A stretch of DNA of 64,000 bases from Bacilli bacterium (GTDB taxonomy: Bacteria; Bacillota_I; Bacilli_A; RF39; UBA660), in the NCBI GenBank assembly GCA_022798795.1, contig JAAWNF010000002.1:1871-65870 (forward strand), given 5' to 3'. Positions 1,037 to 63,245 of the stretch are shown piece by piece. Numbering within the stretch: position 1 is the stretch's first letter; each line of letters begins with the position of its first letter. The notes under the pieces were generated by a model, which saw nothing but the letters and a program-made list of their open reading frames with translations, had not been told where the DNA came from and made no database searches. The translations under genes were made by a program, and so were the position numbers.

Positions 1037-1084
1037 ATAACTTCGATTTGCAAAGTAAAATAAGCATTATTATTGACAAAAAAA

Positions 1085-1440
1085 AAGTACTATAGTACAA
1101 TGTATATAGATGAGGGAAACTTCATATCATAAAAAAGAGATACATTCTAATATTCCTATGTTAGGTGTTTACTCTCTATATATTAGGTAAGAAAAACACC
1201 AATTCAAAGCTGAGTTGGCGTTTTCTTTTAAGTTAATTCTTATTTTTAAGAACTATGATAGTGTAAAACACAATCATTGCAAATGCAATAATTAATTCCA
1301 AAAGAATTTATCCTTCCTATGAATTTTTTCATAAAAACCACCTCGATTCTATCATCTGTTGATGAAGAATTGAGTAAAACACCTAACTATCAGAATAGTA
1401 ACTCCATATTCATTATACATGAGGCTTCTACATTTTACAA
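1085..1440 (-). repeat. Copy 1 of a roughly 300-nt small-gene element. It has a promoter, a 5'UTR, a 28-aa ORF, a hairpin and a 3' region complementary to the 5'UTR. It is homologous to 24215-24600 and to the core at 49105-49325.
   Basis: Long shared blocks with 24215-24600: actatagta(c/g)aatgtatatagatgagg, aaaaaagagatacac, gttaggtgt...acacctaactatcagaat. On the minus strand there is TTGTAA-17-TGTATAAT at 1411-1440. Confidence 0.6.
1246..1332 (-). CDS. Small ORF (28 aa, MKKFIGRINSFGINYCICNDCVLHYHSS) inside element copy 1
   Basis: A GAGGTGG SD lies 5 nt upstream of the ATG. The SD, start and peptide core (R-I-N-S-x-G-I-N-Y) are conserved in the two other copies. Confidence 0.4.
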   Translation of the reverse strand: MKKFIGRINSFGINYCICNDCVLHYHSS

Positions 1441-23484: not shown

Positions 23485-24212
23485 ATATTACAATTGCACA
23501 TCTTTATTATGATTTGCTCAATTTATATGGAGAAAGTGGTAATGTGAAAGCTTTAAAATATGGTTTAGAAAGTCAAGGTATTGATGTTACAATCAAGTTT
23601 GCAACAATTGGAGATGCATTAGACTTTGATTCTTATGATTTTATCTATATGGGCGCTGGAACAGAAGCCAATCAAAAATTAGCACTTCGCCATCTTATAA
23701 AATATAAGGATGATGTAAAAAAAGCAATTGAAATTGGTAAATTCTTTTTAATTACTGGAAATTCTTTAGAACTATTTGGAAAATGTATTATAGATAAACA
23801 TGAAAAAAGAATCAAAACATTACATGCTTTTAATTTCTATACAAAAGAGGAAAATTTTAGAATGGTTGATGAAGCACTGGTAAAAGCTGATTTTATGAAG
23901 CCTTATATATTGGGTTTTCAAAATCAAGGAAGTGTTATTAAAAGCAATGAAAATATAATGTTTGAAGTCATAAAAGGAATTGGAAGTTTTCCAAATAGCA
24001 AAATAGAAGGTGTTCATAAAAATCATTTCTATGGAACTTATTTAATTGGTCCTATTCTAGTTCGAAATCCAGAGTTCTTAAAATATATGGTAAAAGAATT
24101 AATTTTAAGTAAAAATCCAGAGTTTAAATTTAAACGATTTAATCTAACTTTAGAAAATAAAGCTTATCATGAATTTATGAAAAATTATTATAAAGAATAT
24201 ATAGAAGTTTGA
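23481..24212 (+). CDS. gatD: Glutamine amidotransferase GatD (CobQ-like), partner of MurT
   Basis: Overlaps murT by 4 nt (ATGA). Type-1 GATase-like. Confidence 0.75.
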   Translation: MNITIAHLYYDLLNLYGESGNVKALKYGLESQGIDVTIKFATIGDALDFDSYDFIYMGAGTEANQKLALRHLIKYKDDVKKAIEIGKFFLITGNSLELFGKCIIDKHEKRIKTLHAFNFYTKEENFRMVDEALVKADFMKPYILGFQNQGSVIKSNENIMFEVIKGIGSFPNSKIEGVHKNHFYGTYLIGPILVRNPEFLKYMVKELILSKNPEFKFKRFNLTLENKAYHEFMKNYYKEYIEV

Positions 24213-24214
24213 CA

Positions 24215-24600
24215 AAACAAAATTACTATAGTAGAATGTATATAGATGAGGTTTTCCTCATAAAATAAAAAAGAGATACACTCTGATATTGCGTGTTAGG
24301 TGTAACTCTAAACTTTTGGTTATAGAAAACACCTCTCATTGCTGATTGGTGTTTTCATTTAATTAGTCCTTTTTCTTAAGAACTAGAACAGTATAAAATA
24401 CTATAGTTATAAATATAACCATTAATTCCATTGGAATTTGTCCTTTCTATAATCGTTTCAATCATAGAAATCACCTCTTCTCTATCATCTAGTGATGAAA
24501 GAATAGAGTTTAAAAACACCTAACTATCAGAATTGTATCCATATATATTATATATCATATATATCTATTATACAAGAGTGCTACTGAAAATTATTGAATA
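24215..24600 (-). repeat. Copy 2 of the small-gene element
   Basis: Homologous block-by-block to 1085-1440. It has the same TGTATAAT promoter context, the same ATTCTGATAGTTAGGTGTTTT 5'UTR, SD and ORF, the same hairpin and the same ACACCTAAC 3' region. Confidence 0.6.
24376..24465 (-). CDS. Small ORF (29 aa, MIETIIERTNSNGINGYIYNYSILYCSSS) inside element copy 2
   Basis: GAGGTGA SD lies 5 nt upstream. It is a paralogue of 1246-1332. Confidence 0.4.
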   Translation of the reverse strand: MIETIIERTNSNGINGYIYNYSILYCSSS

Positions 24601-24605
24601 CAAAA

Positions 24606-24640
24606 AGAATATGAAAGCCATATTCTTTTTTCATTTATTT
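24606..24640. terminator. Bidirectional intrinsic terminator downstream of pheT
   Basis: AAGAAUAUG...CAUAUUCUU stem flanked by T/A runs on both strands. Confidence 0.5.
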
Positions 24641-27019
24641 ATTTCTAAGCTCTGCATGTAATCCTGTTGTAACAGCTTCAATAATACGCTCAAATACAAC
24701 CGTTACTTCTTGCTCATTCAATGTTCTATTTGGGTCACTAAATGTTAATGCATACGCAATCGATTTTTCATCTTCCCCTACATTTTCTCCTTCATAAACA
24801 TCAAATACATCAATATTTGTTAACATTCTACTTCCTGCTTTTTTGATGATTTCTTCTATTTCTTTTGAAGATACATTTTTCTTTACAATAAAAGCTACAT
24901 CTTTTTTGACACTTGGAAATTTTGGAATTTCTTTAAACTTAATTGGTTTTACTTTTAATTCCAATACTTTCTCTAAATTAATTTCAAATACATAGACATC
25001 TTTTTTTGAAATATTAGGATGTACTCTTCCAATAAATCCTACTACTTCTCTATCAATTAATATTCTTGCACTCATTCCAGGATGTAATTCTTTTCCTAAA
25101 TTTTCAGTATCAAATTGATAGCGATTGGTAAGGCCTAAAAAGCAAAGTAAATTCTCTACGATTCCTTTTATTAAGTAAAAATCAATATTGATTTTATTTC
25201 CTTGCCAAGTATTTTCTTCATAAACACCACTCATAAGTCCTGACAGTGTAAAATCTTCTTTATAGGTTTCATTTTCCTTATAATAGATAGCTCCAGTTTC
25301 AAAAATGGAAACATCTTTTCTGTTACGAGCTACATTATAATCATAAACATGTAATAAAGATGGTATGAATGATTTTCTCATAATTTTTCTATCCTCACTC
25401 ATTGGAGAATTTAAAATTACAGAATCTTTCTTCTTTGAAACAAATAACTCAGCTTCTTCTTCACTTAGCAAAGAATAAGTAATTACTTGATTTAGACCTA
25501 GTGCATTTAAATGTCTACGAATTGTTCTTTCTAATTTTGCTTTTTTAGAATAAGTTCCTTTTCTAATTCTATCCATTGGTAGTGTCCCAACAACTTTGTT
25601 ATACCCATAAATTTTGCCAATTTCTGCAATCAAATCTTCTTTAATATTAACATCTAATCTTCTAGTTGGTACAAACACTTCAAATATGTTATATTTAATT
25701 TTATACTCAAATCCCAAGCGTGGTAAAATCTCACATACATCTTCTTTGGTTATCGGCATTCCTAAAACGCTCTCAATGTTTTCTAACGAAACTTCTATTT
25801 TCTTATCTTCCTTATTTGTTGTATCATGTGTCAATACCCCAGAGCATACTTCTCCTTCTGCATAAAGTTCTAAAAGCTCACATGCTCTATTTAACGCCAA
25901 AACAGTCCTATAAGGGTCTACTCCTTTTTCATAACGACTGCTTGCTTCACTTCTGATAATTGCTTTTGAAGTATAACGAATATGAGTCGGTTCAAAAATA
26001 GCTGCTTCTATAAAAATATCTTTCGTATCTAGTTCTATTTCTGTTTCTAAGCCTCCCATTACTCCTGCTAATGCTACTGGTCCTGTTGGATTTGCGATTA
26101 CAATATCTGTATCTTTTAAAGCTCTTTCTTTATTATCCAATGTGATTAATGTTTCTTCATCGGTTGCCATTCTTACAATCACTTCATCTCCTAAACGGTT
26201 CTTATCAAAAAAATGAAGCGGTTGTCCATATTCAAGCATAACATAATTGCTGATATCAACAACATTATTAATGGGTCTAATACCACTTGCCATCAAACGA
26301 TTTTTGATAAATTTTGGACTCTCTTTAATGGTAACATTTTTTACTAATTTTCCCAAATAAATTGAGCAATTCTCTGTTTGTACCTGTAATCTCATTTGGT
26401 CATTGATGTTTTCTTTCGCCTCATGAAGCTTAATTTCTGGTAATACTACTTTTCTATTATAAATAGCACCAACTTCATAAGCCATTCCTATCACACTTAA
26501 TAAGTCTGCTCTATCTGCGGTTAATTCAAAATCAATTACTTCATCATCTAATCCCAAATAATGCAGTGCATCTTCTCCTACTTTTGCATCTTCCCCTAAA
26601 ATATGAATTCCTGCGTGGTCTTCTTCTTTTAAATATTTTGATTCCAAGCCTAATTCTGCCAAAGAGCAAATCATTCCATTCGATTCCATTCCTGCTAATT
26701 TTGCCTTTTTGATAACTCCACCAGGAAGCTCAGCACCCACTGTTGCTACAATTACTTTTTCTCCCGCTTTTACATTTGGAGCTCCACATAAAATCTGAAC
26801 AGTTTCACTCCCTATATTCACATTACAAATGTGCAAATGGTCTGATTCTGGATGGTTTTCACATGTTTCTACATATCCAATAACCAGTCCTGTCGCATTA
26901 CATAACTTTCCAATACTTTCATATTCATTTCCTGCAAATACCATTTTTTCTGCTAATTCAGAATAAGGAATACCAGATAAATCAATATAATCACTTAAAA
27001 AGGATTTACTTAAACGCAT
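24635..27019 (-). CDS. pheT: Phenylalanine--tRNA ligase beta subunit
   Basis: 794 aa with tRNA-binding, B3/B4 and B5 domains. It is adjacent to pheS. Confidence 0.9.
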   Translation of the reverse strand: MRLSKSFLSDYIDLSGIPYSELAEKMVFAGNEYESIGKLCNATGLVIGYVETCENHPESDHLHICNVNIGSETVQILCGAPNVKAGEKVIVATVGAELPGGVIKKAKLAGMESNGMICSLAELGLESKYLKEEDHAGIHILGEDAKVGEDALHYLGLDDEVIDFELTADRADLLSVIGMAYEVGAIYNRKVVLPEIKLHEAKENINDQMRLQVQTENCSIYLGKLVKNVTIKESPKFIKNRLMASGIRPINNVVDISNYVMLEYGQPLHFFDKNRLGDEVIVRMATDEETLITLDNKERALKDTDIVIANPTGPVALAGVMGGLETEIELDTKDIFIEAAIFEPTHIRYTSKAIIRSEASSRYEKGVDPYRTVLALNRACELLELYAEGEVCSGVLTHDTTNKEDKKIEVSLENIESVLGMPITKEDVCEILPRLGFEYKIKYNIFEVFVPTRRLDVNIKEDLIAEIGKIYGYNKVVGTLPMDRIRKGTYSKKAKLERTIRRHLNALGLNQVITYSLLSEEEAELFVSKKKDSVILNSPMSEDRKIMRKSFIPSLLHVYDYNVARNRKDVSIFETGAIYYKENETYKEDFTLSGLMSGVYEENTWQGNKINIDFYLIKGIVENLLCFLGLTNRYQFDTENLGKELHPGMSARILIDREVVGFIGRVHPNISKKDVYVFEINLEKVLELKVKPIKFKEIPKFPSVKKDVAFIVKKNVSSKEIEEIIKKAGSRMLTNIDVFDVYEGENVGEDEKSIAYALTFSDPNRTLNEQEVTVVFERIIEAVTTGLHAELRNK

Positions 27020-28074: not shown

Positions 28075-28300
28075 CCTCCTAATAAAAAAATCACATCCAA
28101 TAAGGACGTGATTTGACGTGGTACCACCTTAATTTGTAGAACATTCTACCTTGAAACTGTAACGCGTTACCGTTATATGTTTTGCATATAAAACTCCAAG
28201 ACGAATTCATAAATTGATATCATCTATTTTCACCAACCATAGACTCTCTAAAAATATCTCCATTTATTACTACTTCTCTTCTCCGTTTTTCATAAACACT
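28075..28300 (-). promoter_or_regulatory. T-box riboswitch leader of pheST
   Basis: On the minus strand, AAAUUAAGGUGGUACCACG at 28117-28135 matches the T-box consensus. It is followed by terminator AAUCACGUCC...GGAUGUGAUUUUUUUAUU. A UUC is present in a GAAUUCG context. Confidence 0.8.
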
Positions 28301-29129: not shown

Positions 29130-30016
29130 TATTTTTTTTCTTTTAACATTTCACTAATTGTTGTTCCAATGGTTGCTATATTTTGTAGTTCTGATGGAAC
29201 AATAATCTTCGTTGCTTGACCATTTGCAACCGTTTCTAATGCTTCAAAGCTTTTAAGTGTTAAAACAGAAGAGTCAGCTTTTGCTTCCTTTAATAAACGA
29301 ATTCCTTCTGCCTCTGCTGTTTTTAATTTGATAATCGCTTCTGCTTCTCCTTCAGCTTTTTTGATTTTTGATTCTTTATCTGCTTCTGCTCTTAAAATGG
29401 CACTTTCTTTTTCTCCTTCAGCAATTAAAATACTAGATTTTTTTTCTCCTTCTGCCTGAAGAATTTTTTCTCTTCTTTCACGTTCTGCTCTCATTTGTTT
29501 TTCCATTGCTTCTTGAATATCTCTTGGTGGAATGATATTTTTCACTTCAACACGATTTACTTTAATGCCCCATGGGTCTGTTGCTTCATCTAAAATAGAA
29601 CGCATTTTAGAATTGATAATATCTCTAGATGTCAAGGTTTGGTCTAATTCTAGCTCTCCAATAATATTACGTAATGTTGTTGCTGTTAAGTTTTCAATCG
29701 CACTAATTGGATTTTCTACTCCATAAGTATATAATTTTGCATCTGTAATTTGAAAATATACTACAGTATCTATTTGCATTGTTACATTATCTTTTGTAAT
29801 AACAGGCTGTGGGTCAAAATCTTTTACGATTTCTTTTAAAATGACTTGATTGGCTATCCTGTCTAAAAAAGGCAATTTAAAATGCAATCCATTTTTCCAT
29901 GTTGTATAATAAGAGCCTACTCTTTCAATAACATATGTTTTTGCTTGTGGCACAATTTTCACATTTGGCACAATTAGAACAATAGCAAGTATTAAAATAA
30001 CAATTAAAAATTCCAT
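29129..30016 (-). CDS. SPFH/Band 7 (stomatin-like) protein
   Basis: N-terminal TM plus SPFH domain, and a C-terminal coiled coil with AEGE repeats. Confidence 0.85.
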   Translation of the reverse strand: MEFLIVILILAIVLIVPNVKIVPQAKTYVIERVGSYYTTWKNGLHFKLPFLDRIANQVILKEIVKDFDPQPVITKDNVTMQIDTVVYFQITDAKLYTYGVENPISAIENLTATTLRNIIGELELDQTLTSRDIINSKMRSILDEATDPWGIKVNRVEVKNIIPPRDIQEAMEKQMRAERERREKILQAEGEKKSSILIAEGEKESAILRAEADKESKIKKAEGEAEAIIKLKTAEAEGIRLLKEAKADSSVLTLKSFEALETVANGQATKIIVPSELQNIATIGTTISEMLKEKK

Positions 30017-31044: not shown

Positions 31045-31303
31045 AGTCCTAATCGAAAGAGGTTGCGAAACTTATTATTATTTAACAATTACTCAGATTA
31101 TTGTTGTTAAAGAAAGGAAGTTTTGCCGAAATAAAACAAGATATCTGAATCTTGCTTTATTGGGACAGCTACATAATATGGGCTGGACTGTCACAAGAGA
31201 AACTTGTGGAGTGCTTTCAAAATTATTATCATAGAAATGATTTCTATTTTTAATGGTTTTGTGTACTCACAAGACCATTTTTTAATAGAAAGAAGGAATT
31301 TAT
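31045..31303 (+). promoter_or_regulatory. Roughly 250-nt transcribed leader ending in a strong intrinsic terminator (31255-31290). A candidate riboswitch or attenuator of unknown class.
   Basis: The 11-bp stem AUGGUUUUGUG-UACU-CACAAGACCAU is followed by UUUUUU, located 14 nt before the start codon at 31304. Additional internal hairpins are present. Confidence 0.45.
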
Positions 31304-46223: not shown

Positions 46224-47161
46224 TAGTCTCTTAGTTCCTTTCCTGTAAGTTCTAGAAAAACATCATTCAAAGTTGGTCTTTCTGAATAAATCTTATCATA
46301 TAAAATACTCTCTTTTTTGAAATAATCTATGAGTGTAATCAAATTATTTTTTCCTTTTTTATAGATTACAGTTAAGTTTTGATTATGATAATAAATTTCA
46401 TCTACATTTTTCAGTTTTTTTATTTCTTCTAGTTGCTTTTCTGTAATGGAATCTACTTCTACATTCACTTTTTCTTCCATATTCGCTAATTCTTTTAATT
46501 CATCTGGTGTACCACTGGCAATTACTTTCCCCTTATCCAAAATAATCACTCTGTCACAAAGAATTTCTACCTCTTCCATGTAATGTGTTGTATAAACAAT
46601 GGTTGCTCCATTTTCTCTTAATTTTTCAATTCCATCTAAAATATTATTTCGGCTTTGTGGGTCTACAGCTACTGTTGGTTCATCTAAGAAAATTAGTTTG
46701 GGTTTGTGTGCAATTCCACAAGCGATATTTAATCTTCTAAGTAGTCCTCCTGATAATTGCTTGGGATAAAATTTTTTAAATTCATTTAAACTGACCAATT
46801 CAATGGCCTCTTCGATATATTGTTTTCTTAACCGTTTATCATTGATATAAAGGCCACAAAAATAGTCAATATTCTCTTCTACTGTGAGTTCTTCAAATAC
46901 TGCAACATCTTGAAAAACTACTCCAATTTCTCGTTTGATATCATAGGCATTTGGTGCCATTGGTTTTCCAAAGATTTGAATGGTACCTTTTTCAAAATTT
47001 AAAAGAGACAAAATACAATTTATCGTAGTGGATTTTCCAGAACCATTTGGTCCTAATAATCCTAAAATCTCTCCTTTTTTTACTTCTAAAGATATCCCAT
47101 CTACGGCTTTGATATTTTTATATTCTTTGATTAAATTTTTTACTTCAATAACATTTTTCAT
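46223..47161 (-). CDS. ABC transporter ATP-binding protein
   Basis: Walker A GPNGSGKST, signature LSGGLLRRL and Walker B ILDEPT. Confidence 0.85.
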   Translation of the reverse strand: MKNVIEVKNLIKEYKNIKAVDGISLEVKKGEILGLLGPNGSGKSTTINCILSLLNFEKGTIQIFGKPMAPNAYDIKREIGVVFQDVAVFEELTVEENIDYFCGLYINDKRLRKQYIEEAIELVSLNEFKKFYPKQLSGGLLRRLNIACGIAHKPKLIFLDEPTVAVDPQSRNNILDGIEKLRENGATIVYTTHYMEEVEILCDRVIILDKGKVIASGTPDELKELANMEEKVNVEVDSITEKQLEEIKKLKNVDEIYYHNQNLTVIYKKGKNNLITLIDYFKKESILYDKIYSERPTLNDVFLELTGKELRD

Positions 47162-47721
47162 AATCGTTCCTCTTTATATCCTTTCAATAATTCTAAAACA
47201 GTATTCGTAAGTAGTTCTTCTATTTCATTTTCTTCTAATTTTACTGTTTTTGTTGCTAATAAACAAGCAATTCCATGGGTAAAAATAAATACTTTCACAT
47301 GAAATTTCTTCTGTTCTTCATAAGATAATCCTGTTAATTGTTGTCCTTTTTTTATGATATCTTCTCCTTCACTATCATTTATAATAAAGTTTTCTGGGCT
47401 GTTATTTGTTTCTTTCATGAAAAGAATTTTAAATAGTACAGGATGGTCTTTTGCAAATTCTATATAAGAAAGTCCTGATTGTTTATAGGCGTGTTTTTCT
47501 GTTACTCTCTCCATATAGTTCTGATAAGTTTCATAAATTTTTTCATAGACAGTATTTTTTAATTCTTCCATTGATGTAAAGTTATGAAAAATTGGCTGAA
47601 CAGAGGCATTTAATTCTTTTGCGATTCTTCTAGCATTTAAGTTTTCAAATCCTTCACTTTCTACAATTTTATAAGCAATGTTTACAATTTCCTCTTTTGT
47701 ATACTTTTTATTAGGTGGCAT
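47158..47721 (-). CDS. TetR/AcrR family transcriptional regulator
   Basis: N-terminal HTH (ARRIAKELNASVQPIFHNF). Confidence 0.8.
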   Translation of the reverse strand: MPPNKKYTKEEIVNIAYKIVESEGFENLNARRIAKELNASVQPIFHNFTSMEELKNTVYEKIYETYQNYMERVTEKHAYKQSGLSYIEFAKDHPVLFKILFMKETNNSPENFIINDSEGEDIIKKGQQLTGLSYEEQKKFHVKVFIFTHGIACLLATKTVKLEENEIEELLTNTVLELLKGYKEERL

Positions 47722-47765: not shown

Positions 47766-48171
47766 TCATATGTTGGAATATGTGTAAATATAAACTTTAC
47801 AAATATTTATTATTTTAAAATACATAATCATTTACATTATGATTTTTTTTGCACATACAGGAATGACAATATAAATAATAGCAATCCTATGCTACCCATA
47901 AAAATTAAAAAGTACCCTACTATATTTTTTTATTTTATATAATAAATACCGAAAAGAAATATAACAAATAGTAAACCGATAATTATTATATAATATATAA
48001 AAATATAAAGTTTTTTTGACGGAATGCCTTATCAACAACTAATTCTACCAATATACTACTTCAAGGAGATATCTTATATGTTTTTCCTTTTTCTTATAGT
48101 GAATTACTGATATTAAACAAGCTTTTCAATTGATACTAGAACTGTTATAATTAAGTCTAGGAGAGATTTTA

Positions 48172-49041
48172 ATGAATAAATATAGAGCTAATAAACTAAG
48201 AGAATATATTGAAAATTCAGAATTAATTGTTATCAATAGTCATTTTAAAATTCGATTATCTAAAGAATTATTAAAAAAATATGAAAATAATTTATATAAA
48301 ACAGAATTAGATTCTCTTAAAAAACATATCGAAAAAATAAATGCACTAAATATAAAATATCCCGCTAATGCCAATCCAGTATTTTACTTATATATAGTAC
48401 CAGATAGTGATTTTAAGGAATTATTAAATTTTTCACGTTCTTCTATAGGTGGTGGAAAACCTGTTATATCATACGATTTAGATGGATTTAATAGCTCCTA
48501 TGGTTTAAGTAGTAACATGTTAGAAAATACCACTAGTTCAGCTATTCAAGAAACTGTGAATACAATTCATGAATTAGCTCATTTAGTTCATAGTATGTTT
48601 TTTCTAGGAGTAGATAGGTTTATCTGCGAGGGATTTGCTGAAGCTTTGCCACTATATACTATGGATTATGAAAGTATATTTAATCAACATAGAGAACTAT
48701 TAAAATCTTTAAAAAAAGAGCAAATTTTATCTGCTCAAGAATTAATAGAACTAGGAAATAATCAGTTTCATGCAGAACCACTTATTCCTAATACTTCGTG
48801 CTCTTTTGAGCTACCTTACATTTCTTCTTATTTATTTGTAAGAGGTTGTTTAGAAAAGATAGCAAATAAATTTCATCTAAACAGAAATGAAGCGACCCAA
48901 AAGTTCTTAGAGATTGTCAAACAGTCAGAATGCTCTAGTCAATGGCTAGTTTTTGATATTGCAAATGCTATAGGTATTTCTGGAACAGACTTGTTAAATA
49001 AAAAAGATATGCAATTTGATATGATAAATTATATGGCTTGA
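48172..49041 (+). CDS. Hypothetical protein with an HExxH motif (putative Zn-peptidase-like)
   Basis: IHELAHLVH motif. It is flanked by roughly 400 bp of AT-rich non-coding DNA and by terminators. Upstream there is a 10-aa uORF (MFFLFLIVNY) with an AAGGAG SD. Confidence 0.45.
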   Translation: MNKYRANKLREYIENSELIVINSHFKIRLSKELLKKYENNLYKTELDSLKKHIEKINALNIKYPANANPVFYLYIVPDSDFKELLNFSRSSIGGGKPVISYDLDGFNSSYGLSSNMLENTTSSAIQETVNTIHELAHLVHSMFFLGVDRFICEGFAEALPLYTMDYESIFNQHRELLKSLKKEQILSAQELIELGNNQFHAEPLIPNTSCSFELPYISSYLFVRGCLEKIANKFHLNRNEATQKFLEIVKQSECSSQWLVFDIANAIGISGTDLLNKKDMQFDMINYMA

Positions 49042-49149
49042 TTTTTGATTTCTTCTCTAGTATAATACATATAGATGGAAATATTCCATAAAATAAAATG
49101 AGACACGAATAATTTTTTAGGTGTTAAGCGTGTCTAATCATTAGCAACG

Positions 49150-49185
49150 CTTGAACAAATATCAAGCGTCCTTTTTTAATCTTTG
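49150..49185 (+). terminator. Intrinsic terminator of the 48172-49041 gene
   Basis: ACGCUUGA-ACAAAUA-UCAAGCGU followed by CCUUUUUUA. Confidence 0.6.
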
Positions 49186-49188
49186 TTT

Positions 49189-49260
49189 TTAGGTCTTAGG
49201 TCTAATAGTAAAATCAAGATAATTAATATTACTAAATATTCCACGGAATCCTTTCATCAT
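49189..49260 (-). CDS. Small ORF (23 aa, MMKGFRGIFSNINYLDFTIRPKT), a third divergent member of the small-gene family
   Basis: GAGGTGA SD lies 5 nt upstream of the ATG. It is similar to the other two at the nucleotide level (CATCATAGACATCACCTC) and the peptide level (RGI-SN-INY). A TTGTATATT promoter-like motif lies upstream. Confidence 0.35.
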   Translation of the reverse strand: MMKGFRGIFSNINYLDFTIRPKT

Positions 49261-49315
49261 AGACATCACCTCACTTTCACGAGGAACGCTTAACAATTAT
49301 CGTGCTCACTTTTAA

Positions 49316-49353
49316 TATACAAGGAAAAAGAAACGAATTACTAACCTTTTCGT
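49316..49353. terminator. Bidirectional terminator hairpin downstream of the 49358-50125 gene
   Basis: AAAGAAACGAA...UUCGUUUCUUU 11-bp stem with T-rich flanks. Confidence 0.5.
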
Positions 49354-62915: not shown

Positions 62916-63245
62916 TTAACGACAATTTTGATGTCTATTATGTCCACCATTATGATGTCCTCCACCATGGTATTGATATCCATTAGATTGATACCCCTGA
63001 TGATTTGTTTGATTACAGTCTGGATAATTGCAATTAGAGTGGTACTCTGTGTGATTTGTTTGATTGCAATTTGGATAGTTACAATTCGCATGATATTCTT
63101 CATGATGATAAGTGTTATTATAAACTTCTTCTTATTCTACACTTGCATTTTCTACTCTTCTAGGACAATCTTGTATATATGCATATACTCTTTCTGCTCC
63201 AAAAATAAGAGAAAGAGCTCCTACTACAAATAAAATCTTTTTCAT
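62916..63245 (-). pseudogene. Secreted His/Cys/Asn-rich tandem-repeat peptide interrupted by a single in-frame TAA (63132-63134). A pseudogene, a sequencing error, or a readthrough candidate.
   Basis: I verified the frame codon by codon. It reads MKKILFVVGALSLIFGAERVYAYIQDCPRRVENASVE-TAA-EEVYNNTYHHEEYHANCNYPNCNQTNHTEYHSNCNYPDCNQTNHQGYQSNGYQYHGGGHHNGGHNRHQNCR*. Two roughly 17-aa repeats correspond to about 50-nt tandem DNA repeats. Confidence 0.5.

Follow-up and report, generated by a model that had tools for sequence, protein, structure and literature searches.

A candidate family of type I toxin–antitoxin-like loci repeated in the genomes of gut-associated Bacilli

Three homologous elements, at about 1073-1440, 24209-24575 and 49038-49321 (hereafter copies 1, 2 and 3), are described here from a 64,000-nucleotide stretch of a Bacilli bacterium genome (Bacillota_I; Bacilli_A; RF39; UBA660; assembly GCA_022798795.1, contig JAAWNF010000002.1, positions 1,871 to 65,870 of the forward strand), the whole of which is called the window and supplies the numbering. 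Each copy is probably a type I toxin–antitoxin-like locus of an undescribed family, in which the minus strand would carry a small mRNA for a hydrophobic peptide of 22 amino acids (aa) and the plus strand a short antisense RNA. The element itself is real, non-random and widespread, and from its sequence we infer transcription from both strands, toxicity of the peptide, neutralisation by the small RNA and coupling of toxin synthesis to a leader open reading frame (ORF).

Copies 1 and 2 share 74% identity (281/378 aligned columns; MAFFT, minus strands), and copy 3 is 53-56% identical to either of them. A family pattern of 34-36 nucleotides (nt), drawn from positions conserved in all three copies, matches exactly three sites in the window, namely the copies themselves, and matched none of 100 dinucleotide-preserving shuffles. 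One scan of 185,579 species-representative genomes with this pattern returned at least 116 DNA stretches, from which 126 distinct full elements were taken, and all family counts given below refer to the matches listed. A first-pass annotation of the window, made from the letters alone, had already described three repeated, structured small-gene elements with likeness to type I toxin mRNAs, and much of that description is borne out. Homology, the family pattern and the covariance model introduced below place the copies where it had put them, between convergent genes in 3/3 cases, and the minus-strand promoter-like sites (for example TTGTAA-17-TATAAT in copy 1), the conserved 5' untranslated region (5'UTR), the GAGGTG Shine–Dalgarno sequence followed by ATG in all three copies and the short ORFs of 23-29 aa exist as written. 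The terminator stem of copy 1 likewise contains a G-U pair on the minus strand that becomes an A-C mismatch on the plus strand. The promoter of copy 2 is present but had been misplaced, as TGTATAAT is its -35 region (TTGTAT, 24570-24575) rather than its -10, and the -10 that is rightly placed relative to the helix discussed below is TATAAT at 24547-24552. The general picture of a repeated small-gene element with covarying 5'-3' pairing thus stands, but the ORF chosen as its product does not, and the plus-strand promoter, small RNA and terminator were absent from that description.

The ORF that is likely to matter lies in another frame. In copy 1, a second minus-strand ORF (1233-1301) overlaps the previously noted one in the +1 frame, and a counterpart occupies the same place in copies 2 and 3. 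The three encoded 22 aa peptides (MELIIAFAMIVFYTIIVLKNKN, MELMVIFITIVFYTVLVLKKKD and MEYLVILIILILLLDLRPKNKD) each have one hydrophobic span and a charged tail, and the earlier statement that the peptides are not hydrophobic is therefore true only of the frame then followed, since a hydrophobic 22 aa ORF is present in the +1 frame of 3/3 copies. Across 18 E-type relatives, those of the copy 1/2 type, synonymous changes make up 36% of pairwise codon differences in the hydrophobic frame, compared with 9.5% in the other, and the three codon positions of the hydrophobic frame have entropies of 0.67/0.26/0.89. Because of this coding signature, the hydrophobic frame appears to be under purifying selection, and, as judged by these substitutions, the conserved and selected product is the 22 aa hydrophobic peptide, not the 23-29 aa peptide. 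The supposed peptide core of the latter (RGIFSNINY) is the ribosome-binding site, start and N-terminus of the toxin ORF read in the wrong frame. A hydrophobic peptide of 21-30 aa is encoded by 103/126 relatives.

The originally noted ORF is found only in the E/F subfamilies (27/126 elements), where its strong ribosome-binding site and ATG are kept in 3/3 copies and 25/25 E/F-type relatives. Its length ranges from 8 to 50 codons in two-ORF relatives, with no conservation of the C-terminal half, and yet it crosses the toxin's ribosome-binding site and start in every two-ORF element, stopping 10-13 nt past the toxin ATG in the related loci L020 and L023. Given this variable end and constant span over the start of the hydrophobic ORF, it behaves as a leader ORF, and it is probably regulatory rather than a conserved protein. 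In E-type relatives, a predicted hairpin pairs the leader AUG region with sequence just 5' of the toxin's GAAAGGA ribosome-binding site, and the toxin AUG lies within a small palindrome, AATTCC-AAT-GGAATT. Programmed frameshifting from the leader into the toxin frame was considered and set aside: inspection by eye showed no conserved slippery site, and a separate ribosome-binding site and start serve the toxin ORF.

On the plus strand, promoters with 10-11/12 consensus matches precede a predicted small RNA of about 107-124 nt, which folds into four parts: a 5' hairpin (SL1), an A-rich linker, a second hairpin (SL2) and a terminator (T1). Intrinsic plus-strand terminators were detected by scan in copies 1 and 3; the T1 hairpin of copy 2 was recognised from fold and sequence and did not pass the terminator scan. 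The two units converge, and the small RNA is fully antisense to the predicted 3' untranslated part of the minus-strand transcript. The -10 hexamer of the small-RNA promoter begins with TA in 125/126 members, at positions not set by the search pattern, and its -35 hexamer has at least 4/6 matches in 107/126. In an alignment of 49 diverse sequences, 16 of the 19 consensus pairs across SL1, SL2 and T1 show compensatory changes. As the first-pass annotation had proposed, a covariance model was run on the window and on relatives. Built from the small-RNA alignment, with the three window copies in the training set, the plus-strand model gave exactly three significant matches in the window with filters off (78.8, 74.0 and 58.7 bits); the next match there, on the reverse strand of copy 3, reached 27 bits. 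In 100 related loci, it recovered 125 sites, including copies missed by the pattern. Strand preference is equally pronounced: SL1 is more stable on the small-RNA strand in 113/120 elements and SL2 in 103/120, and T1 is followed by at least five U in 110/120 elements on the small-RNA strand as against 6/120 on the toxin strand. The toxin transcript should therefore read through T1 in most members and continue to the U-run past the end helix discussed below. In the E/F type, copies 1 and 2 included, both sides of the T1 stem carry A and T tracts.

The model also gave a weak match to the 5' region of the copy 2 toxin mRNA (24462-24567, minus strand; 18.9 bits, E = 0.28), because the small RNA resembles the toxin 5'UTR in sequence. 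The SL2 loop was considered as an element directed against a ribosome-binding site, given a resemblance seen by eye in copy 1 (UUCCUAUG versus CAUAGGAA); the resemblance is missing in copy 2 and most relatives, the loops vary, and it was put down to chance.

The end complementarity noted earlier is real, with compensatory change in copy 3, and amounts to a long-range helix of the toxin mRNA in which the first ~30 nt of the predicted transcript pair with the last ~40 nt, just before a U-run. It consists of two covarying helices separated by a bulge of 7-11 nt, which is the complement of the SL2 loop. RNAalifold applied to 58 diverse constructs (5' strand, linker, 3' strand) returned two helices with 19 pairs, 18 of them compensatory, and 90% of cells in the helix are paired, compared with 36-48% after sliding the partners by 1-3 columns. 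With a score of 0.605, covariation exceeds that of shuffles (0.31; 0/500 reach the observed value) and of slid partners (0.11-0.17). The predicted duplex of a 5'UTR with the 3' tail of its own element averages -35.4 kcal/mol, compared with -25.6 kcal/mol for non-cognate partners, and the toxin strand gives the better duplex than the opposite strand in 111/126 elements, with 127 G:U wobbles against 26 A:C mismatches. The helix also fits the expected transcript boundaries, as its first paired base lies 5-6 nt after a -10-like hexamer, the expected transcription start, in 73 of the 83 elements with a recognisable -10, and its last paired base abuts the U-run. With inverted DNA repeats and converging transcripts, it follows that the small RNA copies the 5' strand of the mRNA, not its complement. 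Between the two halves the small RNA has 7-11 nt extra, which allow SL2 to fold; the mRNA 5' strand is without these and has no self-fold.

The features of the three copies are as follows.

Copy 1, 1073-1101 (+): small-RNA promoter, TTGACA-17-TACAAT, 11/12 consensus matches.
Copy 1, 1107-1230 (+): predicted antisense small RNA, ~124 nt; covariance model 78.8 bits; fold -31.2 kcal/mol, z = -4.1.
Copy 1 (+): small-RNA parts from fold and terminator scan: SL1 at 1110-1125, A-rich linker, SL2 at 1137-1176, T1 stem at 1199-1218 followed by a T-run.
Copy 1, 1412-1440 (-): toxin-mRNA promoter, TTGTAA-17-TATAAT, with TG directly before the -10; 10/12 matches.
Copy 1, 1128-1405 (-): predicted full-length toxin mRNA, ~278 nt, from the predicted start to the T-run past the end helix; the fold of 1106-1406 (-) has -84.1 kcal/mol, z = -8.2, and is closed by the 5'-3' pairing.
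Copy 1, 1372-1406 (-): end helix, 5' strand (5'UTR element ...ATTCTGATAGTTAGGTGTTTTACTC).
Copy 1, 1137-1176 (-): end helix, 3' strand, with the unpaired bulge (CATAGGAATAT region); the other strand encodes SL2.
Copy 1, 1339-1344 (-): strong ribosome-binding site GAGGTG of the leader ORF, 6 nt before the ATG at 1332.
Copy 1, 1246-1332 (-): leader ORF, the one first noted (MKKFIGRINSFGINYCICNDCVLHYHSS).
Copy 1, 1233-1301 (-): putative toxin ORF, TTG start (MELIIAFAMIVFYTIIVLKNKN); own ribosome-binding site AGGAAGGA at 1311-1318.
Copy 2, 24209-24237 (+): small-RNA promoter, TTGACA-17-TAGAAT, 11/12 matches.
Copy 2, 24243-24361 (+): predicted antisense small RNA, with SL1 at 24246-24261, SL2 at ~24273-24309 and T1 at ~24325-24355; covariance model 74.0 bits; fold.
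Copy 2, 24547-24575 (-): toxin-mRNA promoter, TTGTAT-17-TATAAT, below the -35 threshold of the scan; the end helix begins 5 nt after the -10.
Copy 2, 24506-24541 (-): end helix, 5' strand.
Copy 2, 24273-24309 (-): end helix, 3' strand, followed by a T-run at 24262-24272.
Copy 2, 24376-24465 (-): leader ORF (MIETIIERTNSNGINGYIYNYSILYCSSS), with GAGGTG at 24472-24477.
Copy 2, 24363-24431 (-): putative toxin ORF, ATG start (MELMVIFITIVFYTVLVLKKKD).
Copy 3, 49038-49066 (+): small-RNA promoter, TTGATT-17-TATAAT, 10/12 matches.
Copy 3, 49072-49178 (+): predicted antisense small RNA, with SL1 at 49075-49089 and a terminator stem at 49147-49169 followed by CCTTTTTT; covariance model 58.7 bits; terminator scan.
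Copy 3, 49286-49321 (-): toxin-mRNA -10 box TATATT (49314-49319, TG before it) and end helix, 5' strand (49286-49309).
Copy 3, 49099-49131 (-): end helix, 3' strand (ACGCTTAACA...), followed by a T-run at 49088-49098; compensatory changes relative to copies 1 and 2.
Copy 3, 49189-49260 (-): leader ORF (MMKGFRGIFSNINYLDFTIRPKT), with GAGGTG at 49267-49272.
Copy 3, 49176-49244 (-): putative toxin ORF, GTG start (MEYLVILIILILLLDLRPKNKD); homologues in L020, L041, L049, L097 and L104 start with ATG.

Beyond the window, the hosts of the listed elements are nearly all known as metagenome-assembled genomes (MAGs) from animal guts, assigned to uncultured Bacilli, ‘Tenericutes’ or ‘Mycoplasma sp.’. Candidatus Coprosoma, Candidatus Faecisoma and Firmicutes bacterium CAG:822 are among them, and complete chromosomes measure 1.3-1.5 Mb. 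The family falls into three classes. In the single-ORF class (76/126 elements), the strong ribosome-binding site directly drives a hydrophobic peptide of 25-30 aa, of which there are at least four types (for example MNKKDFLIL...IVLI, MTKRE...ILFK, MKKRVFILKVLNN... and MKQTEKCLFLII...); the two-ORF class has the layout of the window (27/126); and a further 23/126 comprise 21 elements without a ribosome-binding site recognised by the rule used and two unclassified ones, some of the 23 being decayed loci with an intact small RNA. Many copies can occur in one small genome, with tandem arrays of up to four elements spaced at ~330-365 nt. No copy was found beyond chromosomes: blastn with copy 2 gave no match in plasmid and phage collections, the family pattern gave none in viral contigs, and all elements found are chromosomal. 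Comparison of the three window loci revealed no conserved neighbouring gene beside the elements. Database searches were similarly negative. In the Rfam check proposed in the first-pass annotation, no family relevant to the elements was found in the whole window at the gathering threshold, nor any toxin–antitoxin family in 1000-1560 at E values up to 10. Seven toxins and three leader peptides had no meaningful match in Pfam and NCBIfam, exact look-up of ten peptides in a collection of 15 billion proteins found 0/10, and a literature search pairing type I toxin terms with RFN20 returned no paper containing RFN20.

Several individual relatives deserve mention. Arrays of three to four elements are found in L060 (2651-3756), L095 (2103-2957), L024 (1388-2206) and L081 (987-1759), and different toxin types are mixed in some of them (L024). 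In L005, L008 and L033, the small-RNA gene is intact and the 5' half of the toxin is missing or truncated, which gives them the look of loci in decay or of orphan antitoxins, the latter being a recognised stage in the decay of toxin–antitoxin loci. In L051 (4236-7344), from a related genome, the neighbours of copy 1 recur as an Impact-like gene of 192 aa and a murC of 439 aa, but the interval holds two elements in tandem and a further gene of 173 aa. A match to the DNA pattern in L083, a Syntrophomonas MAG, was without a covariance-model match and was dismissed as chance. The charge layout of the peptides also differs: the N-terminus is basic (MNKK/MTKR) and the C-terminus hydrophobic in single-ORF toxins, and in the toxin types of the window the N-terminus is acidic (ME) and the C-terminal tail basic (KKKD/KNKD). 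These opposite topologies suggest opposite membrane orientation on the same RNA scaffold.

A mechanism consistent with this architecture may be outlined. The end helix, or panhandle, would bury both ends of the mRNA and leave the message stable and largely untranslated, a protection that can be likened to the 5' ‘upstream helix’ stabilising par RNA I (PMC7472228); the predictions have the ribosome-binding site paired both with and without the panhandle. As the small RNA and the predicted toxin mRNA overlap, they would be fully complementary over ~100 nt. The small RNA could nucleate on the exposed bulge, precisely the place for its SL2 loop to dock, and on the terminator loop and then zip up over these ~100 nt, displacing the mRNA's own 5' strand, whose sequence it copies, and the resulting long duplex and free 5' end may lead to decay. 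The strong ribosome-binding site of the window's subfamilies would drive the leader ORF across the weak ribosome-binding site and start of the toxin, and a ribosome on the leader would melt the leader-AUG hairpin and the toxin-AUG palindrome, making toxin synthesis dependent on leader translation, as with mok and hok.

A more specific version, put forward only tentatively, is a strand-exchange type I system, in which an antitoxin that mimics the 5' end of the toxin mRNA displaces the 5' strand from the panhandle, and in which six or more hydrophobic peptide types, unrelated to one another and of opposite membrane orientations, have come to use a single scaffold, the old start site having turned in two of them into a mok-like leader, which would be the first of its kind outside Gram-negative families. 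The panhandle and the adjacent U-run may, under this strand-exchange version, themselves terminate transcription.

Several points weigh against the toxin–antitoxin interpretation. Transcript ends, small RNA and peptide are predictions throughout, as is toxicity, the hosts being uncultured, and the assignment to type I systems is made on architecture, the elements having no similarity to known toxin or antitoxin families in Rfam, Pfam and NCBIfam. It is possible that the shared T1 ends the toxin transcript before the 3' strand of the helix is reached in copies 1 and 2 (at ~1190 in copy 1), and a scan of the three copies found no canonical terminator on the toxin strand past the end helix. The family was gathered with a pattern lying in the 5' part of the small RNA, where conservation is thus partly ascertainment. 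The excess of G:U pairs could be inflated by strand-biased mutation, an unlikely cause because SL1 and SL2 are biased in the direction opposite to the end helix in the same DNA. The predicted accessibility of the ribosome-binding site hardly depends on the end helix (0.19 versus 0.16 and 0.34 versus 0.25 with or without it). A role of the helix as a gate on that site was rejected, as the site is mostly in local hairpins in both states, and a role in stability or targeting is preferred. Finally, the hairpin of the leader AUG and the toxin's ribosome-binding site is conserved, with only 2/13 pairs compensatory; because it hardly varies, covariation speaks neither for nor against it.

Among other explanations, the elements may encode a small membrane protein without toxicity, for example one that regulates a membrane complex or is part of it, and the cis-antisense RNA would then do no more than tune its mRNA, with the same anatomy but without any toxin–antitoxin logic. 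The toxicity of the peptides is itself inferred, the elements are all chromosomal, with none in the plasmid, phage and viral collections searched, and the position of copy 1 is syntenic in a related genome. However, one scaffold carries several unrelated hydrophobic peptide types of opposite charge topology, the 1.3-1.5 Mb genomes hold many copies with tandem arrays and decayed copies reduced to the small RNA, and no neighbouring gene is conserved. Since such habits fit type I toxin loci and not housekeeping small proteins, we consider a non-toxic protein unlikely. A very unlikely alternative is the first-pass proposal of a structured mRNA for a non-hydrophobic peptide of 23-29 aa with no antisense partner. 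Its strong ribosome-binding site and ATG are indeed present in 3/3 copies and 25/25 E/F-type relatives, with the frame open past the start of the hydrophobic ORF in every case, but this frame has the low synonymous share reported above (9.5% versus 36% in the +1 frame), a length varying from 8 to 50 aa, an unconserved C-terminal half and no counterpart in 76/126 relatives, and the proposal has no place for the plus-strand promoter, covarying RNA and terminator.

The first-pass annotation had itself named a known mobile repeat as one finding that would overturn its reading, and units of ~300 bp with inverted repeats of ~30 bp near their ends, many copies per genome and a location in intergenic gaps recall a non-autonomous repeat of the miniature inverted-repeat transposable element (MITE) or repetitive extragenic palindromic (REP) kind. 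Arms kept identical in DNA for a transposase would mimic covariation as well. Such elements are defined by terminal inverted repeats at the DNA level, a non-coding interior and target-site duplication, whereas the mismatches here are strand-asymmetric (G:U 127 versus A:C 26), with the neighbouring hairpins asymmetric the other way; one arm has 7-11 nt inserted, which make up a hairpin loop on the opposite strand; the helix runs from the predicted transcription start to the U-run; the small-RNA promoter and SL1 lie outside the repeat; and the interior has a coding signature and internal promoters. With no copies in the viral, plasmid and phage collections searched either, a mobile repeat is unsupported and seems to us highly improbable. 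Just as little can be said for the plus-strand small RNA being the functional unit, acting in trans, with the opposite-strand ORF incidental. The 5' third of this RNA is the most conserved part of the locus, and L005, L008 and L033 keep it after losing the 5' half of the ORF; that conservation, however, owes something to the search pattern, purifying selection apparently acts on the hydrophobic frame, the toxin-strand end helix covaries independently, and orphan antitoxins are generally known as a decay state. We give this reading hardly any credence.

Set against known systems, a type I toxin–antitoxin-like locus agrees with the general description of the type: toxins are peptides of fewer than 60 aa and usually hydrophobic, like the 22 aa ORFs of 3/3 copies, and an RNA complementary to the toxin mRNA is present in silico as the predicted small RNA. 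Many copies per small genome, tandem arrays and decayed copies with only the small RNA would also be behaviour typical of type I loci. Gram-positive type I families have antisense RNAs that overlap at the 3' end (PMC8594479). Among them, TxpA/RatA and BsrG/SR4 of Bacillus subtilis are probably closest in likely mechanism, with a 3'UTR duplex leading to decay. They share with the present elements the convergent arrangement with a 3' overlap of ~100 nt, provided that the toxin transcript reads through T1 (PMC8594479), as well as a small hydrophobic peptide and a host of the low-G+C Gram-positive type. The elements nevertheless have no sequence or profile similarity to them (Rfam, Pfam, NCBIfam), and the peptides are only 22-30 aa. 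Here, moreover, the antisense target doubles as the 3' strand of a covarying end helix, the small RNA repeats the 5' end sequence of the mRNA, and it stops short of the ORF in copies 1 and 2, reaching only the stop codon in copy 3.

The par system of the Enterococcus faecalis plasmid pAD1 (Fst; RNA I-RNA II) and its Fst/Ldr relatives offer further parallels, including convergent promoters facing a shared terminator hairpin, a ribosome-binding site sequestered in a hairpin and, in the window's toxins, a charged C-terminal tail. The par toxin RNA gains stability from a helix in which its 5' end is hidden (PMC7472228), and the helix hiding the extreme 5' end here is analogous, not homologous. In par, however, the direct repeats DRa and DRb pair the two RNAs at the toxin start, whereas here the repeats are inverted and complementarity lies within the mRNA; T1, compared with the bidirectional shared terminator of par, looks one-directional in most members here (toxin-strand U-tract in 6/120), although E/F-type stems, those of copies 1 and 2 among them, have tracts on both sides; and the three window toxins lack, by eye, Trp and the PXXXG motif of Fst (motif per PMC7472228). 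There is no Rfam antitoxin match and no Pfam or NCBIfam match. The elements thus fail the defining tests of par, namely start-site direct repeats, the Fst motif and an Rfam match.

Hok/sok/mok of plasmid R1 and Ldr/Rdl resemble the elements in the 5'-3' fold-back of the full-length toxin mRNA, and hok/sok/mok also in a leader ORF, served by a good ribosome-binding site, whose frame differs from that of the toxin ORF it overlaps. On the other hand, Sok binds the 5' leader and the small RNA here overlaps the 3' end of the mRNA, no Hok/Gef domain was found in Pfam, hok hosts are Gram-negative, and the leader here is confined to the E/F subfamilies (27/126), with translational coupling putative. 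AapA is activated by 3' trimming. AapA/IsoA of Helicobacter pylori likewise involves toxins of ~30 aa and a long-distance 5'-3' interaction that keeps the primary transcript inert (PMC6733600), but there is no sequence relation, and the antisense RNA IsoA, which overlaps the toxin ORF, is contained entirely in the mRNA (PMC8594479). Compared with both hok and AapA, the antisense RNA here would act at the opposite end of the mRNA.

In the window, copy 1 lies between a YigZ/Impact-like gene and murC, copy 2 between a murT/gatD-like pair and pheT, and copy 3 between two unnamed ORFs of 289 aa and 255 aa, the neighbours being convergent in each case; gene names were taken from reading the translations and from Pfam labels of a Logan contig. 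The pheT gene (24635-27019, minus strand) adjoining copy 2 belongs to an apparent pheS/pheT operon, upstream of which a T-box leader is found at 28099-28292 (minus strand; 119 bits, above the Rfam gathering score), and a lysine riboswitch aptamer lies at 31049-31224 (plus strand; 110 bits). Other repeats of the window include four direct repeats in register at 29306-29455 (33 nt spacing, 65-75% identity), probably a repetitive coding segment, and a 51 nt unit duplicated in tandem at 62982-63083 (76% identity). An AT-rich inverted repeat at 47921-48007 (31 nt arms, 87% complementary, 25 nt apart) lies in the gap between a TetR-like ORF (47158-47721, minus strand) and an ORF at 48172-49041 (plus strand), and is possibly an operator or divergent promoter region.

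If the toxin–antitoxin interpretation is correct, these loci would add a large unannotated type I toxin–antitoxin superfamily from a gut lineage known only from MAGs. The long-range helix of the mRNA has far more covariation support than is usual for type I systems, and the layout suggests both an antisense RNA that opens a protective panhandle by strand displacement and an exchange of toxin ORFs as modules on a single regulatory scaffold. These genes escape gene callers entirely, and the family pattern together with the covariance model could be used to annotate them.

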